A DNA stretch of 64,000 nucleotides from Patescibacteria group bacterium (GCA_041671225.1 JBAZBY010000001.1:763454-827453); one strand, 5' to 3'. Shown: positions 3,275-12,200, counted from the first letter of the stretch. A program made the numbers and translations. The notes: generated from the sequence alone by a model not told the origin.

Positions 3275-4195
3275 ATGTGGCATACCACTAAACGCGCATT
3301 TCTCTTTGCTGGTCAGAATTTCATACGAAATTTCTGGCTCTCTTTGGTAACGCTGCTGATTATGGTGCTCACATTGTTCATGATAACAACACTTGCGGGC
3401 GTGCAGCTTGTTTCGACTGAGGCGATTCGCTCTGTTGAAAATCAAGTGGATGTGACGGTGTACTTTGAGCCAGAGACTCCGGAATCTGTGGTATTTGATG
3501 TGCAGGAAGGTTTGCTTGCTGATAGTCGCGTGGAAGGCGTTCGTTTTGTTTCCCGTACAGAGGCTCTAGCGGAATTCAGGGAAAAAAATCAGGATAATCC
3601 ACTACTTCTTGACGCTATTGAGGCATTAGAGACAAACCCACTTGGTCCAACACTTGTTGTGAAGGCAGTGCAGCTTGCTGACTATGCAGAGATTCTTAAA
3701 GCGCTTGAAACCGAGGATGTCTCTCGTTTTATTCAGGATGAAGGAAGAGACTTTGAAGAAACAGCACTTGTCGTTGAGCGGCTTTCTGGCATCACTGACC
3801 GACTACGTCAGATCGGCCTCATTGTGTCCTCGGTGTTTGTGTTGATCGCGATGATGATGACGGTGAACACTATTCGTATTGCGATTTACACGCACCGCGA
3901 GGAAATAGCCATCATGAAGCTTGTGGGCGCAACAAATGGTTTTATACGCGCACCATTTATCATTGAGTCTCTGTATTATGCGGTGCTCGGAGCGATCATT
4001 ACGACGCTGCTTTTCCTGCCGATGATCGGCCTTGTTGACGCGTGGCTTGGTGGTTTTTTTGCCGGTTATGAACTCGGCGTGGTTGAACTCTTACAAAACA
4101 ACCTGCTCTGGTTTTTCCTGGGGCAGCTGGCCTTTGCGGTTTTTCTTTCTGCGCTTTCAGCGGCAATTGCTGTTGGCAGGTACTTGCGAGTTTAA
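3275..4195 (+). CDS. ftsX: cell division permease FtsX
   Basis: The gene is adjacent to ftsE. The product has an N-terminal TM helix, a periplasmic domain and three C-terminal TM helices (FtsX topology). Confidence 0.75.
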   Translation: MWHTTKRAFLFAGQNFIRNFWLSLVTLLIMVLTLFMITTLAGVQLVSTEAIRSVENQVDVTVYFEPETPESVVFDVQEGLLADSRVEGVRFVSRTEALAEFREKNQDNPLLLDAIEALETNPLGPTLVVKAVQLADYAEILKALETEDVSRFIQDEGRDFEETALVVERLSGITDRLRQIGLIVSSVFVLIAMMMTVNTIRIAIYTHREEIAIMKLVGATNGFIRAPFIIESLYYAVLGAIITTLLFLPMIGLVDAWLGGFFAGYELGVVELLQNNLLWFFLGQLAFAVFLSALSAAIAVGRYLRV

Positions 4196-4554
4196 AAGTA
4201 GCTTTTGTCTTCTGGTGCCTGCGCTTTCGTTATAACCTCCTGCACGTCTGGCGGATAGATTTTTGTGATGCAAAATATTCCCGATGTTGTTTTCTTTTCA
4301 GCGTGAATGGTTTGTTCCAGTATATGCGCTTCTCCCCAGAAGAGCCATTTGCCGTCGATGTTCTGAACAAGATGCACGCGTACTGGCGCGGGCTGGTACA
4401 GCCGCATATCCTTTTTCTCAAATGGGAATGTCATGCCAGAAAAATCCTCAGTGGTGAAAGGCGTCTGCAGATGCTTCTCCAATATAAGCGCAGCAGGAAA
4501 TCCTTGTTCCTGCGTTATCTGCAATGTGTCGTTTATTTCGATAAAGCTACCCAT
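4192..4554 (-). CDS. hypothetical protein
   Basis: A 120-aa ORF with no recognisable motif. Confidence 0.35.
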   Translation of the reverse strand: MGSFIEINDTLQITQEQGFPAALILEKHLQTPFTTEDFSGMTFPFEKKDMRLYQPAPVRVHLVQNIDGKWLFWGEAHILEQTIHAEKKTTSGIFCITKIYPPDVQEVITKAQAPEDKSYF

Positions 4555-4761
4555 TAACGACTTATCAACATAAATCCAAGCAGCATGAGACTCGCAAGAA
4601 CGCAGAGACTGATAAGGTGACTATCTTTTGCTAGTGGATTTTCCATGAGAATAGTATAGCGTTTTTTTGTGTCCCCGCAAATGAGAGGGTTTGGTGTCAC
4701 GCTTGCGGCACGTGGCTTTGCTCGCCATGAACCTGAACGAACGGAGTGAGTGAATGGTTTA

Positions 4762-4774
4762 TGGCTCGGGGACA
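4762..4774. repeat. 13-nt direct copy (TGGCTCGGGGACA) of the tRNA-Gln 3' end; candidate distal att/direct repeat of the island
   Basis: Identical to 12127-12139 (the reverse complement of the tRNA 3' terminus including CCA). A chance 13-mer match within 64 kb is unlikely (about 0.002). Confidence 0.55.
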
Positions 4775-4989
4775 ACTTGTCCGCCTCTGGCGGAGGGATT
4801 TATCGCCTCGCCCCGCGCCTAGCGGTGCTCGTTGTCCGGGGCAGCAGTGAACGCTGCGCCAGCTCGCGTTCCCTGATCGCTCGCCGTCGCCACGCCTTCG
4901 GCAAGTGGCTTGGCTCGCTTCTGCCCGGTTCGAATCCTCCATAAACAAAAAAGGTTCTGCCGCCCGCAGACGGGCGCCAAAACCTTTTT

Positions 4990-5177
4990 GGCTCTCTTTA
5001 CTGTGCGCCGCGCGAACCTATTTTGAGACGCAGGAAGGAAAAAACGGGGAAAAATGAAAAAATCTTCTCTTGGAGGGGCGGGGCGGAATTCCCCCCAAAC
5101 CCCCCTTCCGCCCCGCCCCTTTTCTTGGGCGCGAAAATCTGAGAGTACGAAGATCTTTGTTTTACTACCGTCGCTTC
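4990..5177. repeat. 188-bp inverted repeat, arm A (perfect reverse complement of 10276-10463)
   Basis: Verified by direct reverse-complement comparison. It contains the GGGGCGGGGCGGAATTCCCCCCAAACCCCCCTTCCGCCCCGCCCC G-rich palindrome. Confidence 0.9.
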
Positions 5178-5302
5178 ACCCTTCGTGCTTGCTCAGTGCT
5201 TGCTTCGTGTTCGTTCGGTGGTGTCCATGGTAACTCTTTGTGCTTACCCCACCCGCCCTGTGAGCGCGTAAACCCGTCCGCTAACGCGGACGACTCCTTT
5301 AA

Positions 5303-7666
5303 TTAGTATTTTTGATAAATGGTGTTAAAGTCTGTAATTTTTCCTTTAAGCTGTGAAAGGCCGTGGTCGTCGCCCACATCAACATGAGAAGTAGTCCAAT
5401 TACAAAAAGAATATATATTCTTGATCTTATCCAAATCGTCGTCAGAAACTTGCTTATTTGTTTTTATGCCATCTACAACTTTTGGAAAGTCCTGCAATAC
5501 ATCAAGGTGTAGGAGACGGCATTTAATAAAGTTTTCAGTCTCGTATCTTAAATATTGGCCATACTCAACTATTTGAAGTTCAACATCAAAACCATTCTGG
5601 TTTTGTCCAAGTTGCAATAAATGTTCCTCAAAGTTGGTAAGTTTTTCAATGAACCTTTGCGTCATGCTTTTACAAATAAAGCTCCCGCCAAATCTCTTTT
5701 CGTTTCTTAGAATGTTGTATTCAAGTGATTGATCGCGGAATTTTTTGCGCAGAAACTTAAAAAATGTTCTGTGGTGAGTAAAAACAAATGTTTGTGAGAA
5801 TTTGTCTTTTTCAGTAGCAATCAAATCTACCAAGCTACTCAAGTTGCTATCGTCTAAACTTGTAATAGGATCGTCAAAGATAAGAATTTTCTTATCCTCA
5901 TCTTTCTGAATATCAAGGAAGGCAAAAAAGAAGCAGAGTGATAGAACCTGTATCTCGCCTTCCGACAGTCCTTCTTTAAGATCTCTTTCGGTCCCGTCAG
6001 AATCAATGACCCTAAACGCTAAAGGCAACTCTTTTGTAGAACCTGTGTGGCGATTGTCTGTATCAAGTTCTAAAGTAAAACTAAATTTGAAATTGCTAAA
6101 ATAGGATTCAATTTTTCGGAGTGTTTTTTTAAAAGCACCCTTAGCGCAATACTCCTCGTAGGATTCTCTTGCTATTTTGTGGGCTTCTCGTGCCTTCTCA
6201 AGCGACCTTATTAACTTGTTTAATTCTTTTAGTTGTTGGAGTTTGAACTTATTACTTTCAATCTTATTACTATTGATAAACCCCAACTCCCGCTCAATAT
6301 CATTCAAATTTCTTTGATTCTTTTCGATTCTACCAGCTAATTTTTCATCAGTATGCTCCTTTTTGAAATTTCTAATAAGCTTATTCTTGGCTTTTACAAA
6401 GCGCGCAAGTTCTAAAAAATATTTTTTTAGATTACTAAACTCATCTCGCGCCTCGCCAAACAGAATGGATATATCCTCTTTGGTAGGTTTCCCAAGATTA
6501 ACAAGTTTTGTTTTTAACTCGCCGATCTTTTTTAGGGTCGGTAATTTTCTAAAATATTCCTCCTTTTCTATGTCGTAAAGTCCTTTTATGGTATATTGTT
6601 CAACGAGCTTCTTCATTTTGATAAAATAATCGTCCAACTCAAACTCGTTGAGTGCCTCTTGTACTTGTTCCAGCTCTGCTATTAAGGTTTCCTTGTATTT
6701 TTCAAACTGACCCTCCTGCTCCTTATAAGATTCATCATAAATTTGATTGTAAGTTTTGACTATCTGTTTTATTTCTTCCTCTCTATTTTGCGTCCCGCAA
6801 AACGGGCATTGATTTGGGTGTTCATCTCTTACATCAAACCCCATTTCAAAAAATTCTTTATGTTTTTTAATCTGCTCAACCAAACTACGCTCGGCCTCCA
6901 CTTTTGCACGCTCTTTTAGTTTGAAATTAAAAACTTTCTGATAGGAAGTTTTTGAGGAGAGGTTAAACTCGATATCAACTTCCTCTAATTCTTGTATGAC
7001 TTGAACTTCCCTCGTCTTTTGCAAGAGCTGACTATCAAGTTCTAGTTCGTTGGACAAATCCACCCTCTTTTGACCGAGTTCTTCCCTTATGTTCTTAGTA
7101 GTATTTTCGTCCTTTCGTTTATACTTTCTAAAAAGTCTTTCCCCATCTTCATCTAATTCAAAACCAAGAACCCGTTTATTGCTTGTCTTAAAGTCATCAA
7201 GTTTCTGATTTTTCTCCTCCTTTATTCCAGCCAATCTATCCCTAACCTTGCGAAGTTCAATGGCATCGCCGTCAAACTCTATGACGAGGTTTCCGGATTC
7301 TTGCTCCTGTTCACCTTGCTGTGTACCTCGTTCACGGCCAAGATGAACATGCCTATCCACAAATTCCCGGTCAAAAAATAATATAGAATCTTTCGGAATA
7401 TAATCATCCCACTTATCCTCAGTGCGAGTATATTTATACCTCTTACTATCAATCAATACTTGCGCTTCTTCAGGGTAGCATTTAGTAAATTTTTTATTTT
7501 GAGATACGCTTTTAAGAATGTTACAAATTGAACTTTTTCCGCTTCCGTTCTCGCCATATAAAATGTTGGTCTTTTGGTGGAAATTCTCGGTATTAAAAAA
7601 ATTATGCCAAGAAAAATCTTGGAATGATTTATAACTTTTTATCTTCTTGATTTGCTTGAGTTTCAT
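5303..7666 (-). CDS. AAA_13-family ABC-type ATPase with a long coiled coil and Rad50-like CxxC zinc hook (RloC/PrrC-like; candidate anticodon nuclease or defence ATPase)
   Basis: Walker A GENGSGKSS at the N-terminus. A lysine/glutamate-rich coiled coil of about 450 aa has CPFCG at its centre. Walker B ILIFDDPITSLD and the H-loop FTHH follow. A C-terminal extension of about 170 aa contains RLLH. The gene is AT-rich (about 35% GC). Confidence 0.65.
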   Translation of the reverse strand: MKLKQIKKIKSYKSFQDFSWHNFFNTENFHQKTNILYGENGSGKSSICNILKSVSQNKKFTKCYPEEAQVLIDSKRYKYTRTEDKWDDYIPKDSILFFDREFVDRHVHLGRERGTQQGEQEQESGNLVIEFDGDAIELRKVRDRLAGIKEEKNQKLDDFKTSNKRVLGFELDEDGERLFRKYKRKDENTTKNIREELGQKRVDLSNELELDSQLLQKTREVQVIQELEEVDIEFNLSSKTSYQKVFNFKLKERAKVEAERSLVEQIKKHKEFFEMGFDVRDEHPNQCPFCGTQNREEEIKQIVKTYNQIYDESYKEQEGQFEKYKETLIAELEQVQEALNEFELDDYFIKMKKLVEQYTIKGLYDIEKEEYFRKLPTLKKIGELKTKLVNLGKPTKEDISILFGEARDEFSNLKKYFLELARFVKAKNKLIRNFKKEHTDEKLAGRIEKNQRNLNDIERELGFINSNKIESNKFKLQQLKELNKLIRSLEKAREAHKIARESYEEYCAKGAFKKTLRKIESYFSNFKFSFTLELDTDNRHTGSTKELPLAFRVIDSDGTERDLKEGLSEGEIQVLSLCFFFAFLDIQKDEDKKILIFDDPITSLDDSNLSSLVDLIATEKDKFSQTFVFTHHRTFFKFLRKKFRDQSLEYNILRNEKRFGGSFICKSMTQRFIEKLTNFEEHLLQLGQNQNGFDVELQIVEYGQYLRYETENFIKCRLLHLDVLQDFPKVVDGIKTNKQVSDDDLDKIKNIYSFCNWTTSHVDVGDDHGLSQLKGKITDFNTIYQKY

Positions 7667-7692
7667 CTTCCGGTCATGGCAAGGACGTCTTG

Positions 7693-8862
7693 TTACCGAT
7701 TTCCTTTTGCTCTATTGTGTGTTTTACACAGCATCTCACAATTCTTCGCCGAAGTAGCACCGCCCTTGCTCCACGCTGATACATGGTCTGCTTCCATTTC
7801 GCCAAAACCCCAAATCTTGCTTTTGTTAGCATCATGCCCAACGGCGCAAAGCGAGCAGTTTGACTTCTCTTTGGTTTCAGCCTCTTTGGTTTGTTTAGCA
7901 TAAACAGATCGTTTGGTCGCCTCATCAAAAAATCGGACATCTAGCAATTTTGTATCAACGGAGCCACCGAGAATGTATTCAAAAATGCCTCTGCGATTTT
8001 TGATATACGGATCACCATAGAGCTTATGCACCTCAGCCGATACTTTGGCTGGGTTATATGATTTTTTGTGATACTCCCCGTAAAGTCGTCCCCATTCAAG
8101 CCCGCGCATTTCGCTTTCTACGTCGGTAAATACGCCAGATACCCAATCAATGACGGTGTTAAAGTATTTTTTCAGCTCATCAATGTTTTTGTCTTTGCGA
8201 TGCTTGCTCATGTAATCGCCAATATTGCCTTTGCTAACCCAATCCAAAGCACATTCCAAAAATTCCTGTCGGTTCGCACTACCGGATACATATGCGCTCC
8301 ATTTTTGAATGTTGGCGTTTTGGCTATTGCTAAATTCTTCTTTAGCCCTAGTTACGAATGGACCGGAATACACGGCGTTGAGTAACTCCTGATTATTAAG
8401 TGGAACACCAGCAATATTTATGGTCTTGAACCATTCTTTTATCTGACTCTCTGTTCCTTCACATTCGTAAATGAGTAGTTTCGTTTCCAAAATCTTGGCT
8501 TGTTTGTCTTTTGCCATGCCACCAAAGTATTGTTCCATGCCATTTTCGTCCTTGATGGCAAATTTGTCCGTGATAAATCGTCCGAGACTTGTGATGCGCT
8601 GTTGTCCATCTAAAACTTCTAGGTTGTCGGCGGAGACGATATTAAAATAAATCAATCCGATTGGGTATCCCTTGAGAACTGATTCGATGACGGCCATTTC
8701 TCTTTTTCCGCCATCAGATGCATAAATATAATTTCGTTGATACTCCGGTTGGATGGTAAGCTTGCCAGACAAGCCAAACAGACCCTTACCCTCAAGTTCG
8801 TTATAGACAAATCCGTCACAGATCTCTTGAACAGTTACATTGGTTTTTAGGGTTGTTTTCAT
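7693..8862 (-). CDS. DUF262 (ParB-like NTPase/nuclease) domain fused to a C-terminal HNH nuclease; GmrSD-like type IV restriction enzyme candidate
   Basis: The N-terminal DGQQR motif ([13 protein letters not shown]) is typical of DUF262. The C-terminal HNH motif is CSLCAVGHD...[11 protein letters not shown]...[15 protein letters not shown]. Confidence 0.7.
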
Positions 8863-8863
8863 A

Positions 8864-9991
8864 TTATTTCTTTTTAATAAATATCCGCTTGAATTTGGTT
8901 TTTCCGTTTATTATGCAATGAGGATTTTTGCCGTCCCAAATGCCGCCAGAAAAGCCCTTTCCGTTATCTTCTGCCATTCCGACAATTTCAAATTGTTCAG
9001 GATTATATTTGTCCAAATAACTAATTGGCACACCCATCACACCTTCATAATCACTTGGGATGGCGTCGGTAAACGGCACTTCTATTGCATTATAATTGTC
9101 ATATTTATAATATGTTTTTTCGCCTTTAATCTCTTTGTGTCTACTGTATTTCAAATTTTCTTCCATTGTCATAAGTGGTAATGGTTGATGACGTCTTCCG
9201 TGATCAAGATTAGTGAGCCATAAACAGCTATTAGTAGCAACAATTCTATCCCCATTTTCATCTATTCGCGCTTCTGTTCCAAATAATTCGTAAGATTTGG
9301 GTACAATAAACCCAGAAATCCATCTTCCCATTCCATTACCAAGCCATATTTCATTATTTCTAATTTTTGGGAAAACTTCTTTATATGTTATGCAATTAAT
9401 ATTGCCGATTATCAAAAACTTTTTTTTGTGTTCAAAAAGTTGCTTAACATACTCACGGAACAAACTAAACGGCGGATTGGTTACCACAATATCAGACTGT
9501 TTCAGTAATGCTATACATTCGGGACTTCTGAAGTCACCATCTTCCTCAAGGGGCATCCATTCGTTGTTTTTGTTTTCCTTTAACTGTTTGGCAACATCTT
9601 TCAGATTGAACTCGCCATCGCCGTCTATGTCGTGCACTTCGTTTATAATGAATGTATTGGCAGTTATCTTTGGACGGCCTTTTGCATTTACAAGCGTTTT
9701 GTCATCACCAAATAATCCCAGTTGCGTGTTGGCGACAGGCGATGGTTTGTAGCTCGTTGTGATTAGCTGTTTCAGTCCAAGTCTGTTGAAATTGAGAACA
9801 AAATAACGGAAGAAATTACTCTCAAATGGATCGTCGCAGTTGCAATACACAACTTTAGCTCGAAATGTATTAGGGTTGTAATCTAAATACTTCTCAATTT
9901 CTTTCTGAATATCGCCATATTGAGTATAAAACTCATCGTTCTTTGCTCGTTTCGCATTTGTAAGATTTTTGACTGATGCTTCTCTAGCCAT
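8864..9991 (-). CDS. putative DNA N6-adenine/N4-cytosine amino-methyltransferase (NPPF catalytic motif)
   Basis: [12 protein letters not shown] matches motif IV (D/N)PP(Y/F). The upstream [11 protein letters not shown] resembles a degenerate motif I. It lies 1 nt from the DUF262-HNH gene on the same strand. Confidence 0.55.
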
Positions 9992-9995
9992 AAAT

Positions 9996-10244
9996 TTACC
10001 TCAAAAGCTCGTCGCTCGTTACTCCCAACGCTTGAGCTATTTTCTCAATGGTGGCAAGCGTGGGGTTGCCTTTGCCCGATTCAATATTGCTCATTTGAGC
10101 ACGATCAAGCCCTACCGCACGGCAAACGTCGCCTTGCGACATTTCCTTTTGCTCGCGTATGCGCTTGATATTTTTACCAAGTCTGGACGTTGGGGTTCTT
10201 ATATTCACAGATGTAATATAGCCAGATATTGTGTCGTATGACAA
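9996..10244 (-). CDS. XRE-family helix-turn-helix transcriptional regulator (controller-like)
   Basis: LGKNIKRIREQKEMSQGDVCRAVGLDRAQMSNIESGKGNPTLATIEKIAQALGVTSDELL is a canonical HTH_XRE domain. It is the first gene of the minus-strand cassette. Confidence 0.75.
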   Translation of the reverse strand: MSYDTISGYITSVNIRTPTSRLGKNIKRIREQKEMSQGDVCRAVGLDRAQMSNIESGKGNPTLATIEKIAQALGVTSDELLR

Positions 10245-10275
10245 TAATGTGTTATATTACAAGTATGCTGAAATC

Positions 10276-10463
10276 GAAGCGACGGTAGTAAAACAAAGAT
10301 CTTCGTACTCTCAGATTTTCGCGCCCAAGAAAAGGGGCGGGGCGGAAGGGGGGTTTGGGGGGAATTCCGCCCCGCCCCTCCAAGAGAAGATTTTTTCATT
10401 TTTCCCCGTTTTTTCCTTCCTGCGTCTCAAAATAGGTTCGCGCGGCGCACAGTAAAGAGAGCC
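10276..10463. repeat. 188-bp inverted repeat, arm A' (reverse complement of 4990-5177)
   Basis: Perfect match over 188 bp. The likely promoter region of the HTH gene lies inside this arm. Confidence 0.9.
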
Positions 10464-10531
10464 AGCTCATACTTCTGGAATTTTCCGCCAAAATTTTCCA
10501 CGGCTTTTCCCAAGTCCACAGGGGCTTTCTG
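10459..10531. repeat. 73-bp inverted repeat, arm B (reverse complement of 12060-12132), with an imperfect extension to about 10557
   Basis: Verified by reverse-complement comparison. It shares the 5-nt GGCTC core (10459-10463) with arm A'. Confidence 0.85.
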
Positions 10532-10677
10532 CCAAGGAGGAGGCGGTTCGTGGCACGGAACGTGCCACCAAGGAATTTCTAAAAAACACATATTAGAAAT
10601 TTCTTGGTTCCAATGTTTTCCACGTTTCCGCCAAAGGCGGAAAGACGAAGCAAGATTTATTCTTCTGGCGAATCCCT

Positions 10678-12159
10678 ATGACATATTTCCTCTACGCAAG
10701 AAAATCCAGCGAGGACGAAGAACGCCAAGTGATGTCCATAGAGGCACAGCTTGTTGAATTGGAACAATTTGCAAAACGTGAGAACCTCACGATTGCCAAG
10801 CAGTTTGTGGAGAGTAAAAGTGCAAAAGCACCCGGCCGCGAAGTGTTCAACCACATGCTTTCCGCAATCTACAAAAGCAAGGAACCCGTTGGCATTCTTG
10901 CGTGGCATCCGGATCGTCTCGCGCGCAATTCCGTTGACGGCGGCCAAATCATTTATCTCGTTGATACTGGGAAGGTCATTGCGCTCAAGTTCCCGACATT
11001 TTGGTTTGAACCAACGCCGCAAGGATTGTTCATGTTGCAGGTGGCATTCGGGCAATCGAAATACTATTCAGACAACTTGTCCGAGAACGTAAAACGCGGG
11101 ATTCGCCAGAAGCTCCGCAAAGGAGAATGGCCCGGCCCTGCGCCGTTCGGATATGTGAATAATCGAAACACGCATAGTATTGATCCGGATCCGGTGAAAG
11201 CAAAAATCGTCCGGCGTATCTTTGAGGAGTATGCAACCGGAGAATACAACCTCCGCACGATTGGAGAACACTTTGCACTCTGGGGCGTGGTGAGCGCGTC
11301 CGGCAAACCTTTGGCAAAATCCACCCTGAAGCATCTGCTTACGCACCAAGCATATATTGGAACGATTATTTGGAGTGGTGAGCCGTATGAAGGTTCATTC
11401 CCGCCGTTGGTGCCAAAGGACGTGTTTGAGACCGTCCAGCACGTCATAAAAAGCCAAGAGAAGCGCAGGTACGTCCGCCGGAAGCATGATTTCTCATTCC
11501 TTGGCCTATTCCGCTGTGGAGAATGCGGCGGGGCGATTACGGCTCAACTTGCCAAGGGAAACGGCGGCACATACCGCTATTATCGTTGCACCAAAAAGTT
11601 TGGCCTGTGTAAACAGGGTTACATTCAGGAAAGTGATTTTGCAGTGCTTTTGAGAAAGGAAGTTAATCGTGTTGCGATTAACGAGCAGTGCGCCTCGCGC
11701 ATGCTTGAACAAGTGAAACTGTGGGAACGTGAAGAAAACGTTGATGGCGAAAAACATACGCGCGAAAGAAAAACGAAGTTGGAAGTGATTGACCAAAAAC
11801 TTGATACCCTCGTTAACGCCTTTCTTGAAGGTACGTTAGAAAAGGAAACCTACCTCAAAAAGAAAGCCGAACTAATTGACGCCAAAGCTGGCCTTCGGGA
11901 AGAAAAGGTATCTTTACAAGCGCGAGGCGCACAATGGATCGAACCACTACGAAACTGGATAAACCGCGCTCACCACGCCCAAAATCTTGCTTCGTCTGAT
12001 GATTTGAGCAAACTCAAATCATTCGTGGAAAACATTGGAACGAACCGCCTCCTCCTCGACAGAAAGCCCCTGTGGACTTGGGAAAAGCCGTGGAAAATTT
12101 TGGCGGAAAATTCCAGAAGTATGAGCTGGCTCGGGGACAGGGATTCGAACCCCGATTGA
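10678..12159 (+). CDS. large serine recombinase (integrase/resolvase family)
   Basis: The N-terminal resolvase catalytic domain is YARKSSEDEERQVMSIEAQ...AWHPDRLARN. A recombinase domain and a zinc ribbon (CGECGG...YYRCTKKFGLC) follow, then a C-terminal coiled coil. The last 33 nt overlap the tRNA 3' end and the att arm, so the true stop may lie earlier. Confidence 0.85.
   Translation: MTYFLYARKSSEDEERQVMSIEAQLVELEQFAKRENLTIAKQFVESKSAKAPGREVFNHMLSAIYKSKEPVGILAWHPDRLARNSVDGGQIIYLVDTGKVIALKFPTFWFEPTPQGLFMLQVAFGQSKYYSDNLSENVKRGIRQKLRKGEWPGPAPFGYVNNRNTHSIDPDPVKAKIVRRIFEEYATGEYNLRTIGEHFALWGVVSASGKPLAKSTLKHLLTHQAYIGTIIWSGEPYEGSFPPLVPKDVFETVQHVIKSQEKRRYVRRKHDFSFLGLFRCGECGGAITAQLAKGNGGTYRYYRCTKKFGLCKQGYIQESDFAVLLRKEVNRVAINEQCASRMLEQVKLWEREENVDGEKHTRERKTKLEVIDQKLDTLVNAFLEGTLEKETYLKKKAELIDAKAGLREEKVSLQARGAQWIEPLRNWINRAHHAQNLASSDDLSKLKSFVENIGTNRLLLDRKPLWTWEKPWKILAENSRSMSWLGDRDSNPD
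12060..12132. repeat. 73-bp inverted repeat, arm B'; abuts and includes the last 5 nt of tRNA-Gln
   Basis: Perfect reverse complement of 10459-10531. An imperfect extension runs from 12033 to 12059. Confidence 0.85.
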
Positions 12160-12200
12160 CGGCGCCAAAGGCCGCTGTCCTACCATTAGACGATCCCCGA
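12127..12200 (-). tRNA. tRNA-Gln (anticodon UUG), 74 nt including encoded CCA
   Basis: The reverse complement reads TCGGGGA-TC-GTCTAATGGTAGGAC-A-GCGGC-CTTTGGC-GCCGT-CAAT-CGGGG-TTCGAAT-CCCTG-TCCCCGA-G-CCA. The 7-bp acceptor stem and a GGTTCGAATCC T-arm are present, and the anticodon loop CUUUGGC gives anticodon UUG. Confidence 0.8.

Follow-up and report, generated by a model that had tools for sequence, protein, structure and literature searches.

A predicted Type II restriction-modification system and an RloC-like ATPase in one operon on a tRNA-Gln serine recombinase element of a Patescibacteria group bacterium

Type II restriction-modification (R-M) systems regulated by a controller protein, such as those of the PvuII/Esp1396I type, present their genes in the order controller, methylase and nuclease (C-M-R), with tight coupling, an XRE-type controller, a dyad operator and a near-leaderless promoter. 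Here we examine a locus that resembles them in all these traits, carried on the minus strand of a 64,000-nucleotide stretch of DNA from a Patescibacteria group bacterium (GCA_041671225.1 JBAZBY010000001.1:763454-827453, hereafter the window), in which the C-M-R genes are followed by a gene for a large ATPase. The likeness to controller-regulated Type II systems extends to the methylase (M), an adenine methylase of the gamma class with the NPPF motif, and to the nuclease (R), which fits a Type II restriction endonuclease model derived from REBASE along its full length. The EcoRI and PvuII nucleases have the PD-(D/E)XK fold, whereas R combines a DUF262 domain with an HNH domain. In this respect R is similar to GmrSD, BrxU and SspE, which contain an N-terminal DUF262 domain with the DGQQR motif and a C-terminal His-Me/HNH nuclease (PMC12707154, where BrxU is described with an HNH fold). 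However, these proteins are solitary or associated with modification systems other than methylases and attack modified DNA, whereas R has a methylase and a controller as its partners; sequence searches matched R to no solved member of the GmrSD/BrxU/SspE group.

The ATPase encoded by the fourth gene resembles two other described proteins. RloC of Geobacillus kaustophilus and Acinetobacter baylyi shares with it a length of about 790 residues, an ABC head, a coiled-coil insert with a CxxC motif, an R-x3-E...H triad and weak translation signals. This triad has been defined experimentally as R692/E696/H737 in Geobacillus RloC and as R320/E324/H356 in PrrC (PMC2610378); the spacing between its Glu and His is 50 residues in the ATPase of the window vs 41 in RloC. 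Self-regulation of RloC by DNA and zinc, via the Rad50-like hook and coiled coil, is described in two reports (PMC3458546, PMC3874168). RloC is reported to be linked to R-M systems only rarely (PMC2610378), whereas the subfamily of the present ATPase has R-M genes ahead of it in most loci, as detailed below. PrrC, which accompanies EcoprrI, is likewise an ABC-HEPN anticodon nuclease within an R-M operon and serves as a second line of defence (PMC2610378, PMC3710099), but it has no coiled coil or hook, whereas the ATPase has a helical insert of about 400 residues. Moreover, PrrC is confined to Type Ic hsd loci and masked by that enzyme, whereas the ATPase subfamily partners R-M systems of Types I, II, IIS, IIG and III. 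Anantharaman et al. 2013 (PMC3710099) reported ABC-HEPN proteins as 'often found in R-M operon' and saw in them part of a multi-pronged defence; Ymh is there a further HEPN family linked to R-M systems. The cassette of the window is made of two known bacterial defences in one operon, a C-M-R restriction system and then an RloC-like enzyme predicted to cut tRNA, and adds one more instance to a pairing already known, without representing a defence system of a new kind. An earlier reading of the window, made from the sequence alone (hereafter the sequence-only reading), had considered the architecture to be without a name, but PrrC/RloC-like ABC-HEPN genes within R-M operons were already covered in PMC3710099.

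The four open reading frames (ORFs) are present on the minus strand where the sequence-only reading had placed them, and their Pfam assignments agree with the domains then claimed. With the promoter, the cassette is as follows:

10209 to 10275, minus strand: promoter and C-box-like operator (best promoter match, 10/12; near invariant in six relatives)
9996 to 10208, minus strand: C, controller protein with an XRE-type helix-turn-helix (HTH_3, 1.7e-15 in Pfam; Control_protein, 5.2e-16 in PADLOC; alignment of relatives); the ORF as listed spans 9996-10244 and 82 amino acids
8864 to 9991, minus strand: M, EcoRI-family N6-adenine DNA methyltransferase, 375 amino acids (EcoRI_methylase, 6.1e-128 over the full length, in Pfam; MTase_II, 1.1e-115 in PADLOC)
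7693 to 8862, minus strand: R, restriction subunit with DUF262 (ParB-like NTPase, DGQQR motif) and HNH endonuclease domains, 389 amino acids (GmrSD_N/DUF262, 4.7e-20, and HNH, 2.7e-6, in Pfam)
5303 to 7666, minus strand: RloC-like AAA_13 ABC ATPase, 787 amino acids (AAA_13, 3.6e-34 over residues 24-767, in Pfam)

The stop codon of C is separated by 4 nucleotides (nt) from the start of M, that of M by 1 nt from the start of R, and that of R by 26 nt from the start of the ATPase gene. The two short gaps point to translational coupling of C, M and R, and a GAGG lies inside the final codons of C, ahead of the M start. The GC content of the cassette is 35-41% vs 48-59% in its flanks, and sequence comparison finds the catalytic motifs intact in all four proteins. 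Two identifications on which the sequence-only reading depended are upheld by these matches: the 375-residue protein is a methyltransferase of the EcoRI family, and the 787-residue protein has the AAA_13/ABC fold, with invariant ABC motifs.

The C gene probably starts with the GTG at 10208, giving a protein of 70 residues, and not with the TTG at 10244, because this TTG belongs to the -35 hexamer of the best promoter match and the relatives start elsewhere. The promoter is formed by the -35 element TTGTCA (10244-10239) and the -10 element TATATT (10220-10215), and the C transcript is predicted to be near-leaderless. The ATG with which the relatives start C is ATA in the window, and the GTG lies two codons upstream of this ATA (10200-10210); C may be translated more weakly in the window copy. 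Upstream of C, a dyad of the form TGTAATATA-N32-TATATTACA, with an imperfect inner palindrome, can be read directly from the sequence; it overlaps the -35/-10 region and is conserved in the six relatives aligned. Together, dyad and promoter form the usual C-box arrangement and constitute a predicted operator.

To place M and R among their homologues, one genome per species was scanned in GTDB, in which at least 586 loci contain a relative of R. The best 80 of these were taken for neighbourhood analysis, 76 of them being informative for the linkage of M and R (loci compared with the window are cited below by L numbers). In 72 of the 76, an EcoRI-family methylase precedes R on the same strand; the two are directly adjacent in 51, and in 21 loci other genes fill 0.6-3.5 kb between them (of those sampled, L033 has a PIN_8 protein, and L035 and L038 have unknowns). 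Plasmids of cultured bacteria carry the pair as well, with 70% identity in Moraxella osloensis, 66% in Enterococcus faecium and 61% in Arthrobacter, and the neighbour of R is annotated there as 'adenine-specific methyltransferase EcoRI family protein'. Because the M-R pair is so conserved, in species loci and in plasmids of cultured bacteria alike, we classify C-M-R by its sequence as a conventional controller-regulated Type II R-M system and not as a II/IV hybrid. The sequence-only reading had stated that DUF262-HNH enzymes are not paired with methyltransferases, which this conservation contradicts, and had proposed a hybrid of Types II and IV, which is unneeded, for R matches the PADLOC model REase_II PDLC03418 end to end (2.8e-80, residues 20-388 on profile positions 17-371 of 372). 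Its suggestion that the methyltransferase shields host DNA from the DUF262-HNH nuclease is the best reading of the conserved pair. The translation of M contains the motif TNPPF, and the C-terminal domain of R, which follows the N-terminal DUF262, scores as Pfam HNH and not as DUF1524; R has also weak PADLOC matches to HEC-05/06 and PD-T4-2. Searches of solved structures by sequence gave no meaningful match for either R or M.

In usual R-M pairs the methylase, not the nuclease, is the more constrained partner. Over 70 loci, the median number of nonsynonymous substitutions per site (dN) is 0.088 for R vs 0.197 for M, and the ratio of dN to the synonymous rate (dS) is 0.03-0.05 for R, with dS saturated; by these estimates R is more constrained than M. 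M falls into three or more diverged subtypes, with identities of about 80-90%, 61-78% and 50-55%, and the R next to it is near-constant. The protein identity of R exceeds 81% across phyla, and we attribute this to constraint because dS is saturated and dN/dS is so low; recent spread, which was considered as its cause, is set aside on the same values.

The loci with genes between M and R (L026, L032, L033, L035, L038, L041, L044, L049-L051, L054 and L055, and further L058, L059, L066, L077-L079, L085, L088 and L089) are an example of genes embedded in an R-M system. Where R has no flanking M of the EcoRI family, a RhuM, DUF2130 or AAA_21-type gene lies upstream of it.

The 787-residue ATPase is RloC-like by its motifs and its modelled architecture, with a predicted zinc hook and a predicted tRNase activity. 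In an alignment of 32 homologues with 49-85% identity, the Walker A motif GENGSGKS, the signature LSEGE, the Walker B/D-loop FDDP..SLD and the H-loop/switch His H631 are all invariant, as are the CPFC hook (C287/C290, residues 287-290) and the triad R707-x3-E711...H761 of the C-terminal domain; the presence of hook and nuclease triad agrees with the RloC/PrrC-like character that had been attributed to this protein. The AF2 model (mean confidence, pLDDT, of 80.5) consists of a beta-rich head, helices spanning residues 120-525, a second lobe of the head and a C-terminal domain made up only of helices, and the sole long break in the helices falls at residues 283-292, around the CxxC motif. Compared with solved structures by Foldseek, the model best matches Rad50 (7zr1, 2e-8), the SMC proteins of cohesin and condensin, and Lamassu LmuB (LmuACB, 9hqx, 2e-6), whereas by sequence the matches to solved structures are only SMC and Rad50 heads. 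In PADLOC, the best family is PDC-S06 (3e-29), which is listed as a single-gene candidate and, among the papers searched, occurs in inventories only, with none reporting a functional test; it is followed by LmuB (2.5e-21). Several homologues have been named 'wobble nucleotide-excising tRNase' by the automated, COG-based annotation of JGI. A Shine-Dalgarno-like GGAAG directly abuts the ATG of the ATPase gene; these signals suggest low expression, as noted for rloC genes (PMC2610378). Close homologues of the ATPase are absent from IMG/VR viral contigs.

Homologues of the ATPase lie directly 3' of R-M genes in 16 of the 21 informative loci, and the partner nucleases span nine unrelated families: HsdR, Type III Res, AlwI, MunI, HinP1I, MutH-like, MmeI, HinfI and DUF262-HNH. 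Type I HsdR/HsdMS genes adjoin the homologue in L093, L097 and L103, and Type III Mod/Res genes in L094, L175, L176-L178 and L179-L182. ATPases of 83-85% identity adjoin unrelated R-M nucleases, and behind Type I, Type III and other Type II systems the ATPases have 59-85% identity. In eight of the R-M-linked loci a small C-type HTH gene heads the operon, and a homologous serine recombinase is often near. This linkage across R-M types favours an autonomous second-line module over a masked partner in the style of PrrC, since a specific mask is disfavoured when closely related ATPases follow unrelated R-M types.

Some of these cassettes (L179-L182 and L096) have two predicted RNase modules behind one R-M system, with a Hypoth_Ymh gene of the HEPN family between the restriction genes and AAA_13 (6206-6997 in L179-L182 and 4370-5161 in L096). 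In L097, distant members of the M (31%) and R (26%) families form a pair (4368-6435) convergent to the AAA_13 gene; the latter comes after a Type I HsdR, and the locus lies on a serine-recombinase element beside tRNA-Gln, devoid of inverted repeats.

Viewed from R, the fourth position of the cassette looks different. The ATPase is found in none of the 80 species-representative R loci, and the genes 3' of R, taken over 87 loci, form about 70 singleton clusters (a diversity noted in L013-L092). Seven of ten genes sampled at this position match PADLOC models of defence systems or defence candidates: among the cargo are HerA, an OLD nuclease, AbiLi, PDC-S33 (RelA/SpoT-like), PDC-S39 and PDC-S53, as well as a Schlafen/AlbA protein matching pAgo/Aga models, and in L001-L004 and L013 the slot is taken by a UvrD-type helicase. 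Given that the gene after R differs nearly everywhere and is mostly of the defence type, the position 3' of R behaves, on these neighbourhoods, as a defence cargo slot. From the first 92 R loci, none of which contained the ATPase, it had seemed that the four-gene order never recurred, but this was overturned by L203-L205, which contain C (85% identity), M (64%), R (96%) and AAA_13 (54%) in the order of the window. Nucleotide homology between the window and these loci is unbroken from C to the first ~400 nt of the ATPase gene. Homologues of the genes, whose co-occurrence the sequence-only reading had proposed to survey, are thereby found together elsewhere in identical gene order.

The loci L001-L004 and L201-L202 contain the same C-M-R-UvrD cassette as L013 (99.7% identical), with the recombinase and one repeat arm lost; in L001, an AbiEii/AbiEi toxin-antitoxin pair (~7200-8500) next to tRNA-Ser occupies the recombinase position.

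Known selfish mobile forms of R-M systems include units flanked by long inverted repeats and R-M genes accompanied by an integrase in tRNA genes (PMC2853133). The mobile R-M units described by Furuta, Abe & Kobayashi (2010) and integrative elements of large serine recombinases differ from the carrier of the present cassette, whose two adjacent inverted-repeat (IR) pairs have a core in common with the 3' end of the tRNA, so that an intact, inverted attP-like site stays within the integrated element. Positions 4989-12132 of the window correspond, by their sequence organisation, to a 7.1-kb integrative element at the 3' end of tRNA-Gln, predicted to be driven by a large serine recombinase, and the serine recombinase gene, tRNA junctions and repeats agree with the earlier proposal that the cassette lies inside a recombinase-borne mobile unit. 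Outside the four genes, its features are the following:

4989 to 5177, no strand: outer arm of IR-A, attR-like host junction (100% complementary to 10276-10464; starts with TGGCTC, reverse complement GAGCCA)
5178 to 5302, minus strand: conserved non-coding 3' end of the cassette (terminator-like hairpin right after the ATPase stop, then about 90 nt of conserved GC-rich sequence)
10276 to 10464, no strand: inner arm of IR-A (with 10459-10551 it forms an intact attP-like site, rcA/GAGCCA/B, inverted relative to the outer junctions)
10459 to 10551, no strand: inner arm of IR-B, 93 nt (98% complementary to 12040-12132; overlaps IR-A by the 6-nt core GAGCCA)
10678 to 12159, plus strand: large serine recombinase (Resolvase, 7e-20, Recombinase, 1e-13, and Zn_ribbon_recom, 2e-8, in Pfam; CcrB, CcrA and XisF-like)
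12040 to 12132, no strand: outer arm of IR-B, attL-like junction tRNA/GAGCCA/B (98% complementary to 10459-10551)
12127 to 12200, minus strand: tRNA-Gln(UUG), integration target (ARAGORN; Rfam tRNA, 60.4 bits; its last 6 nt, GAGCCA, are the core)

IR-A (189 nt, 100% identical arms at 4989-5177 and 10276-10464) encloses the four genes, and IR-B (93 nt, 98%, arms at 10459-10551 and 12040-12132) encloses the recombinase gene, whose product has the N-terminal motif YARKSS and whose 3' end crosses IR-B into the tRNA gene. The core GAGCCA is present at all three boundaries, as tRNA/core/B (attL-like), rcA/core/B (attP-like and inverted) and rcA/core/host (attR-like). On the host side of the attR-like junction lies the terminator hairpin expected 3' of a tRNA gene, and the outer arm of IR-A itself contains a GC-rich hairpin between T and A runs. 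The independent contig L183 (5,380 nt) consists of the cassette flanked by exactly 141 nt of either arm, an expected outcome, since a repeat of 189 nt defeats an assembler with k=141.

The double-repeat layout recurs in L013 (tRNA-Ser GCU), L057 (tRNA-Ser GGA), L048 (tRNA-Glu) and L203 (tRNA-Arg), where the outer recombinase arm and the tRNA 3' end have 4-6 nt in common, and also in L031 and L014, in neither of which was a tRNA gene detected; in L019 (tRNA-Ser GCU) only the recombinase repeat pair is visible, the contig ending 48 nt beyond. Across these elements the arms measure 90-200 nt and are mostly 96-100% identical, and the two repeats abut or share a core of 6-27 nt, which is the tRNA 3' end in all five full double-repeat elements with a tRNA found (Gln, Ser twice, Glu and Arg). 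Such high identity of the arms implies recent formation or homogenisation, as judged from the sequences. The recombinases of the relatives are only 40-51% identical to that of the window. Apart from the innermost ~45 nt of IR-A (10276-10320), which are conserved with L001, L005 and L013, the arm sequences of the window have no match in any relative and no further copy in the window; because of this lack of other copies in the window and in the compared loci, the arms are not copies of miniature inverted-repeat transposable elements. Loci of the wider recombinase family (L097, L103, L104 and L179) are without these repeats. No flipped isomers were seen, the recombinase having the same direction relative to the tRNA or outer arm in the six double-repeat elements checked out of seven (L014 being left out), and the C or M end of the cassette faces the internal site in all six elements with a visible cassette (L019 not counted). 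The odd left end of contig L204 was considered as evidence of inversion and discarded, for a de Bruijn assembler can produce it inside a repeat. Two independent units with terminal inverted repeats, or tandem integration, were likewise set aside as sources of the repeats, as neither reproduces the inverted internal site, and simple integration models fail to yield the double-repeat structure. A description of this double inverted-repeat design was not found in the literature searched.

The segment 5178-5302 is conserved (77-85% identity) at the corresponding place of L005-L012 and L203-L205, regardless of the cargo gene, and might be a recombination or exchange site. Its predicted fold (-36.2 kcal/mol, z = -1.9) is no better than expected, and an Rfam scan gave no match for it, the only matches being to tRNA. 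On a joint reading that we put forward tentatively, as a possibility with the odds against it, the carrier belongs to a distinct family of large-serine-recombinase elements, mainly in metagenome-assembled genomes of Patescibacteria (candidate phyla radiation, CPR), in which a landing pad is combined with a partner-agnostic ATPase sensor. In this scheme, the inverted attP-like copy may split the element into a recombinase segment and a defence segment, each within homogenised inverted repeats, while the excised form may be a circle with a topology analogous to that of the yeast 2-micron plasmid. The layout may act as a landing pad for the exchange of C-controlled R-M cassettes and their 3' defence cargo, and the RloC-like ATPase may sense restriction activity (DNA ends) irrespective of the partner, backing any type of R-M system.

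Of the explanations considered for the locus as a whole, the one we find probable is that of an element at tRNA-Gln carrying a Type II C-M-R system together with a separable, interchangeable RloC-like ATPase as a second line of defence. C would act on the dyad operator and thereby hold back the production of R until the chromosome carries the methylation made by M; M would N6-methylate adenine at the host copies of the target site, and R would cut incoming DNA that does not carry the mark of M, its cleavage being sensitive to methylation. In the ATPase, the Rad50-type head, coiled coil and zinc hook would restrain a C-terminal anticodon nuclease of the HEPN type, to be freed by a signal of DNA ends or damage, as from restriction under way or overrun. 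The freed nuclease would then cut tRNA anticodon loops, leading to a stop of translation, abortive infection and possibly addiction to the element, and both modules would also penalise element loss. In this view the ATPase would occupy the slot 3' of R as an interchangeable module and would not belong to this R-M enzyme as a dedicated subunit.

Several observations weigh against one or other part of this explanation. Regarding R and M, four of the 76 informative R loci have no M of the EcoRI family in their flank, the characterised enzyme behind PDLC03418 was not found, and a survey of 4- and 6-mer palindrome avoidance in 0.88 Mb flanking R-positive loci vs 0.98 Mb of control loci gave no signal (by observed/expected counts, neither AATT, GAATTC and CAATTG nor other palindromes are avoided specifically in the R-positive set). 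Regarding the ATPase, the triad residue H761 lies in a low-confidence loop of the AF2 model, no model named after RloC or PrrC is among its PADLOC or NCBIfam matches, and a solved structure of RloC or PrrC for comparison was not found. Regarding the slot, L203-L205 share with the window a homologous 26-nt junction between R and ATPase even though the ATPases are only 54% identical, and L108 retains, as a remnant, 27 residues of the R C-terminus (7547-7627, 78%), placed 11 nt ahead of a distant AAA_13 gene (29%). The pairing of a DUF262-HNH R with AAA_13 is accordingly old and repeated, and could involve functional coupling beyond co-carriage. These last loci also suit an integrated system, in which the ATPase would bind the M/R complex, be masked by it and fire when a phage anti-restriction factor disables that complex, as in PrrC-EcoprrI; the operon layout with its 26-nt gap, the R-M genes preceding the ATPase in 16 of 21 loci and the precedent of PrrC itself (PMC2610378, PMC3710099) add to its appeal. 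Nevertheless, the presence of ATPases with 59-85% identity behind Type I, Type III and unrelated Type II systems would require the mask to evolve anew each time, the ATPase is missing from all 80 species R loci, and it possesses the Rad50-like hook and coiled coil absent in PrrC, through which RloC regulates itself according to PMC3458546 and PMC3874168. We therefore regard an integrated system as rather unlikely, and the fixed four-part system of the sequence-only reading, with the ATPase guarding this particular M/R complex, is not borne out by the same distribution of R and ATPase loci.

Another departure from the probable explanation would be that R is a modification-dependent, GmrSD-like Type IV nuclease, M being unrelated or an orphan, or the two forming a II/IV hybrid. 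We judge this the least credible of the alternatives: the DUF262 domain is indeed that of GmrSD, BrxU and SspE (PMC12707154), and the weak matches of R to HEC-05/06 and PD-T4-2 and the four loci without M are in keeping with it, but the linkage of M and R in 72 of 76 loci, the C protein heading the operon and the Type II model as by far the best PADLOC match all oppose it, as does the C-terminal nuclease domain, which scores as Pfam HNH and not as the DUF1524 that defines GmrSD (PMC12707154); moreover, a methylation-dependent nuclease in one operon with its own methylase would be suicidal. Hardly more convincing is the idea that the ATPase is a DNA-directed sensor of the SMC/Rad50 type, like LmuB or Wadjet, acting together with a DNA nuclease (perhaps the HNH protein next to it) and having no RNase activity. 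The matches to LmuB in PADLOC and to Lamassu LmuACB, Rad50 and SMC proteins in Foldseek would fit such a sensor, which we consider improbable in view of the invariant triad in a separate helical C-terminal domain that SMC, Rad50 and LmuB do not have, the automatic naming of homologues as tRNases, the lack of an LmuA-like effector and the change of upstream nuclease from locus to locus. Finally, both modules could be mainly addiction devices that stabilise the 7.1-kb element by post-segregational killing, phage defence being secondary. This is compatible with the explanation we prefer and is suggested by the minimal recombinase element having only potentially lethal modules as cargo, by the AbiEii toxin-antitoxin pair at the recombinase position in L001 and by the selfish R-M forms with inverted repeats or tRNA-inserted integrases (PMC2853133), whereas the slot after R holds mostly recognised anti-phage genes; the sequence separates the two roles in nothing, and we see a primary role in addiction as doubtful, albeit less so than the other alternatives.

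The probable explanation, an element carrying a Type II system and an interchangeable second-line ATPase, does not overturn current ideas, the principle of the pairing having been published since 2013. What is new is the partner-agnostic R-M linkage of this RloC-like subfamily, the strong constraint on R and the unexplained double inverted-repeat element. DUF262-HNH proteins are routinely labelled 'McrA' or GmrSD-like Type IV, and such labels need correcting, given that the R of the window appears as partner in a widespread Type II system. The linkage of the RloC-like subfamily to many R-M types allows a generic signal (DNA ends) to be tested vs a specific partner, and the 7.1-kb element is small enough for whole synthesis, offering a handle on mobile defence cassettes in CPR bacteria that are hard to culture.

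Two minor observations concern the surroundings of the genes discussed. The AAA_13 gene of L108 is preceded also by a MutH-like nuclease and a C5 methylase, and the R remnant before it looks like the fossil of an earlier R-ATPase junction. Beyond the element, the window contains at 4192-4554, on the minus strand, an ORF of 120 amino acids with no family match in Pfam, PADLOC or NCBIfam, and between it and the element boundary (4988) extend about 430 nt of GC-rich DNA in which no ORF makes a convincing gene.

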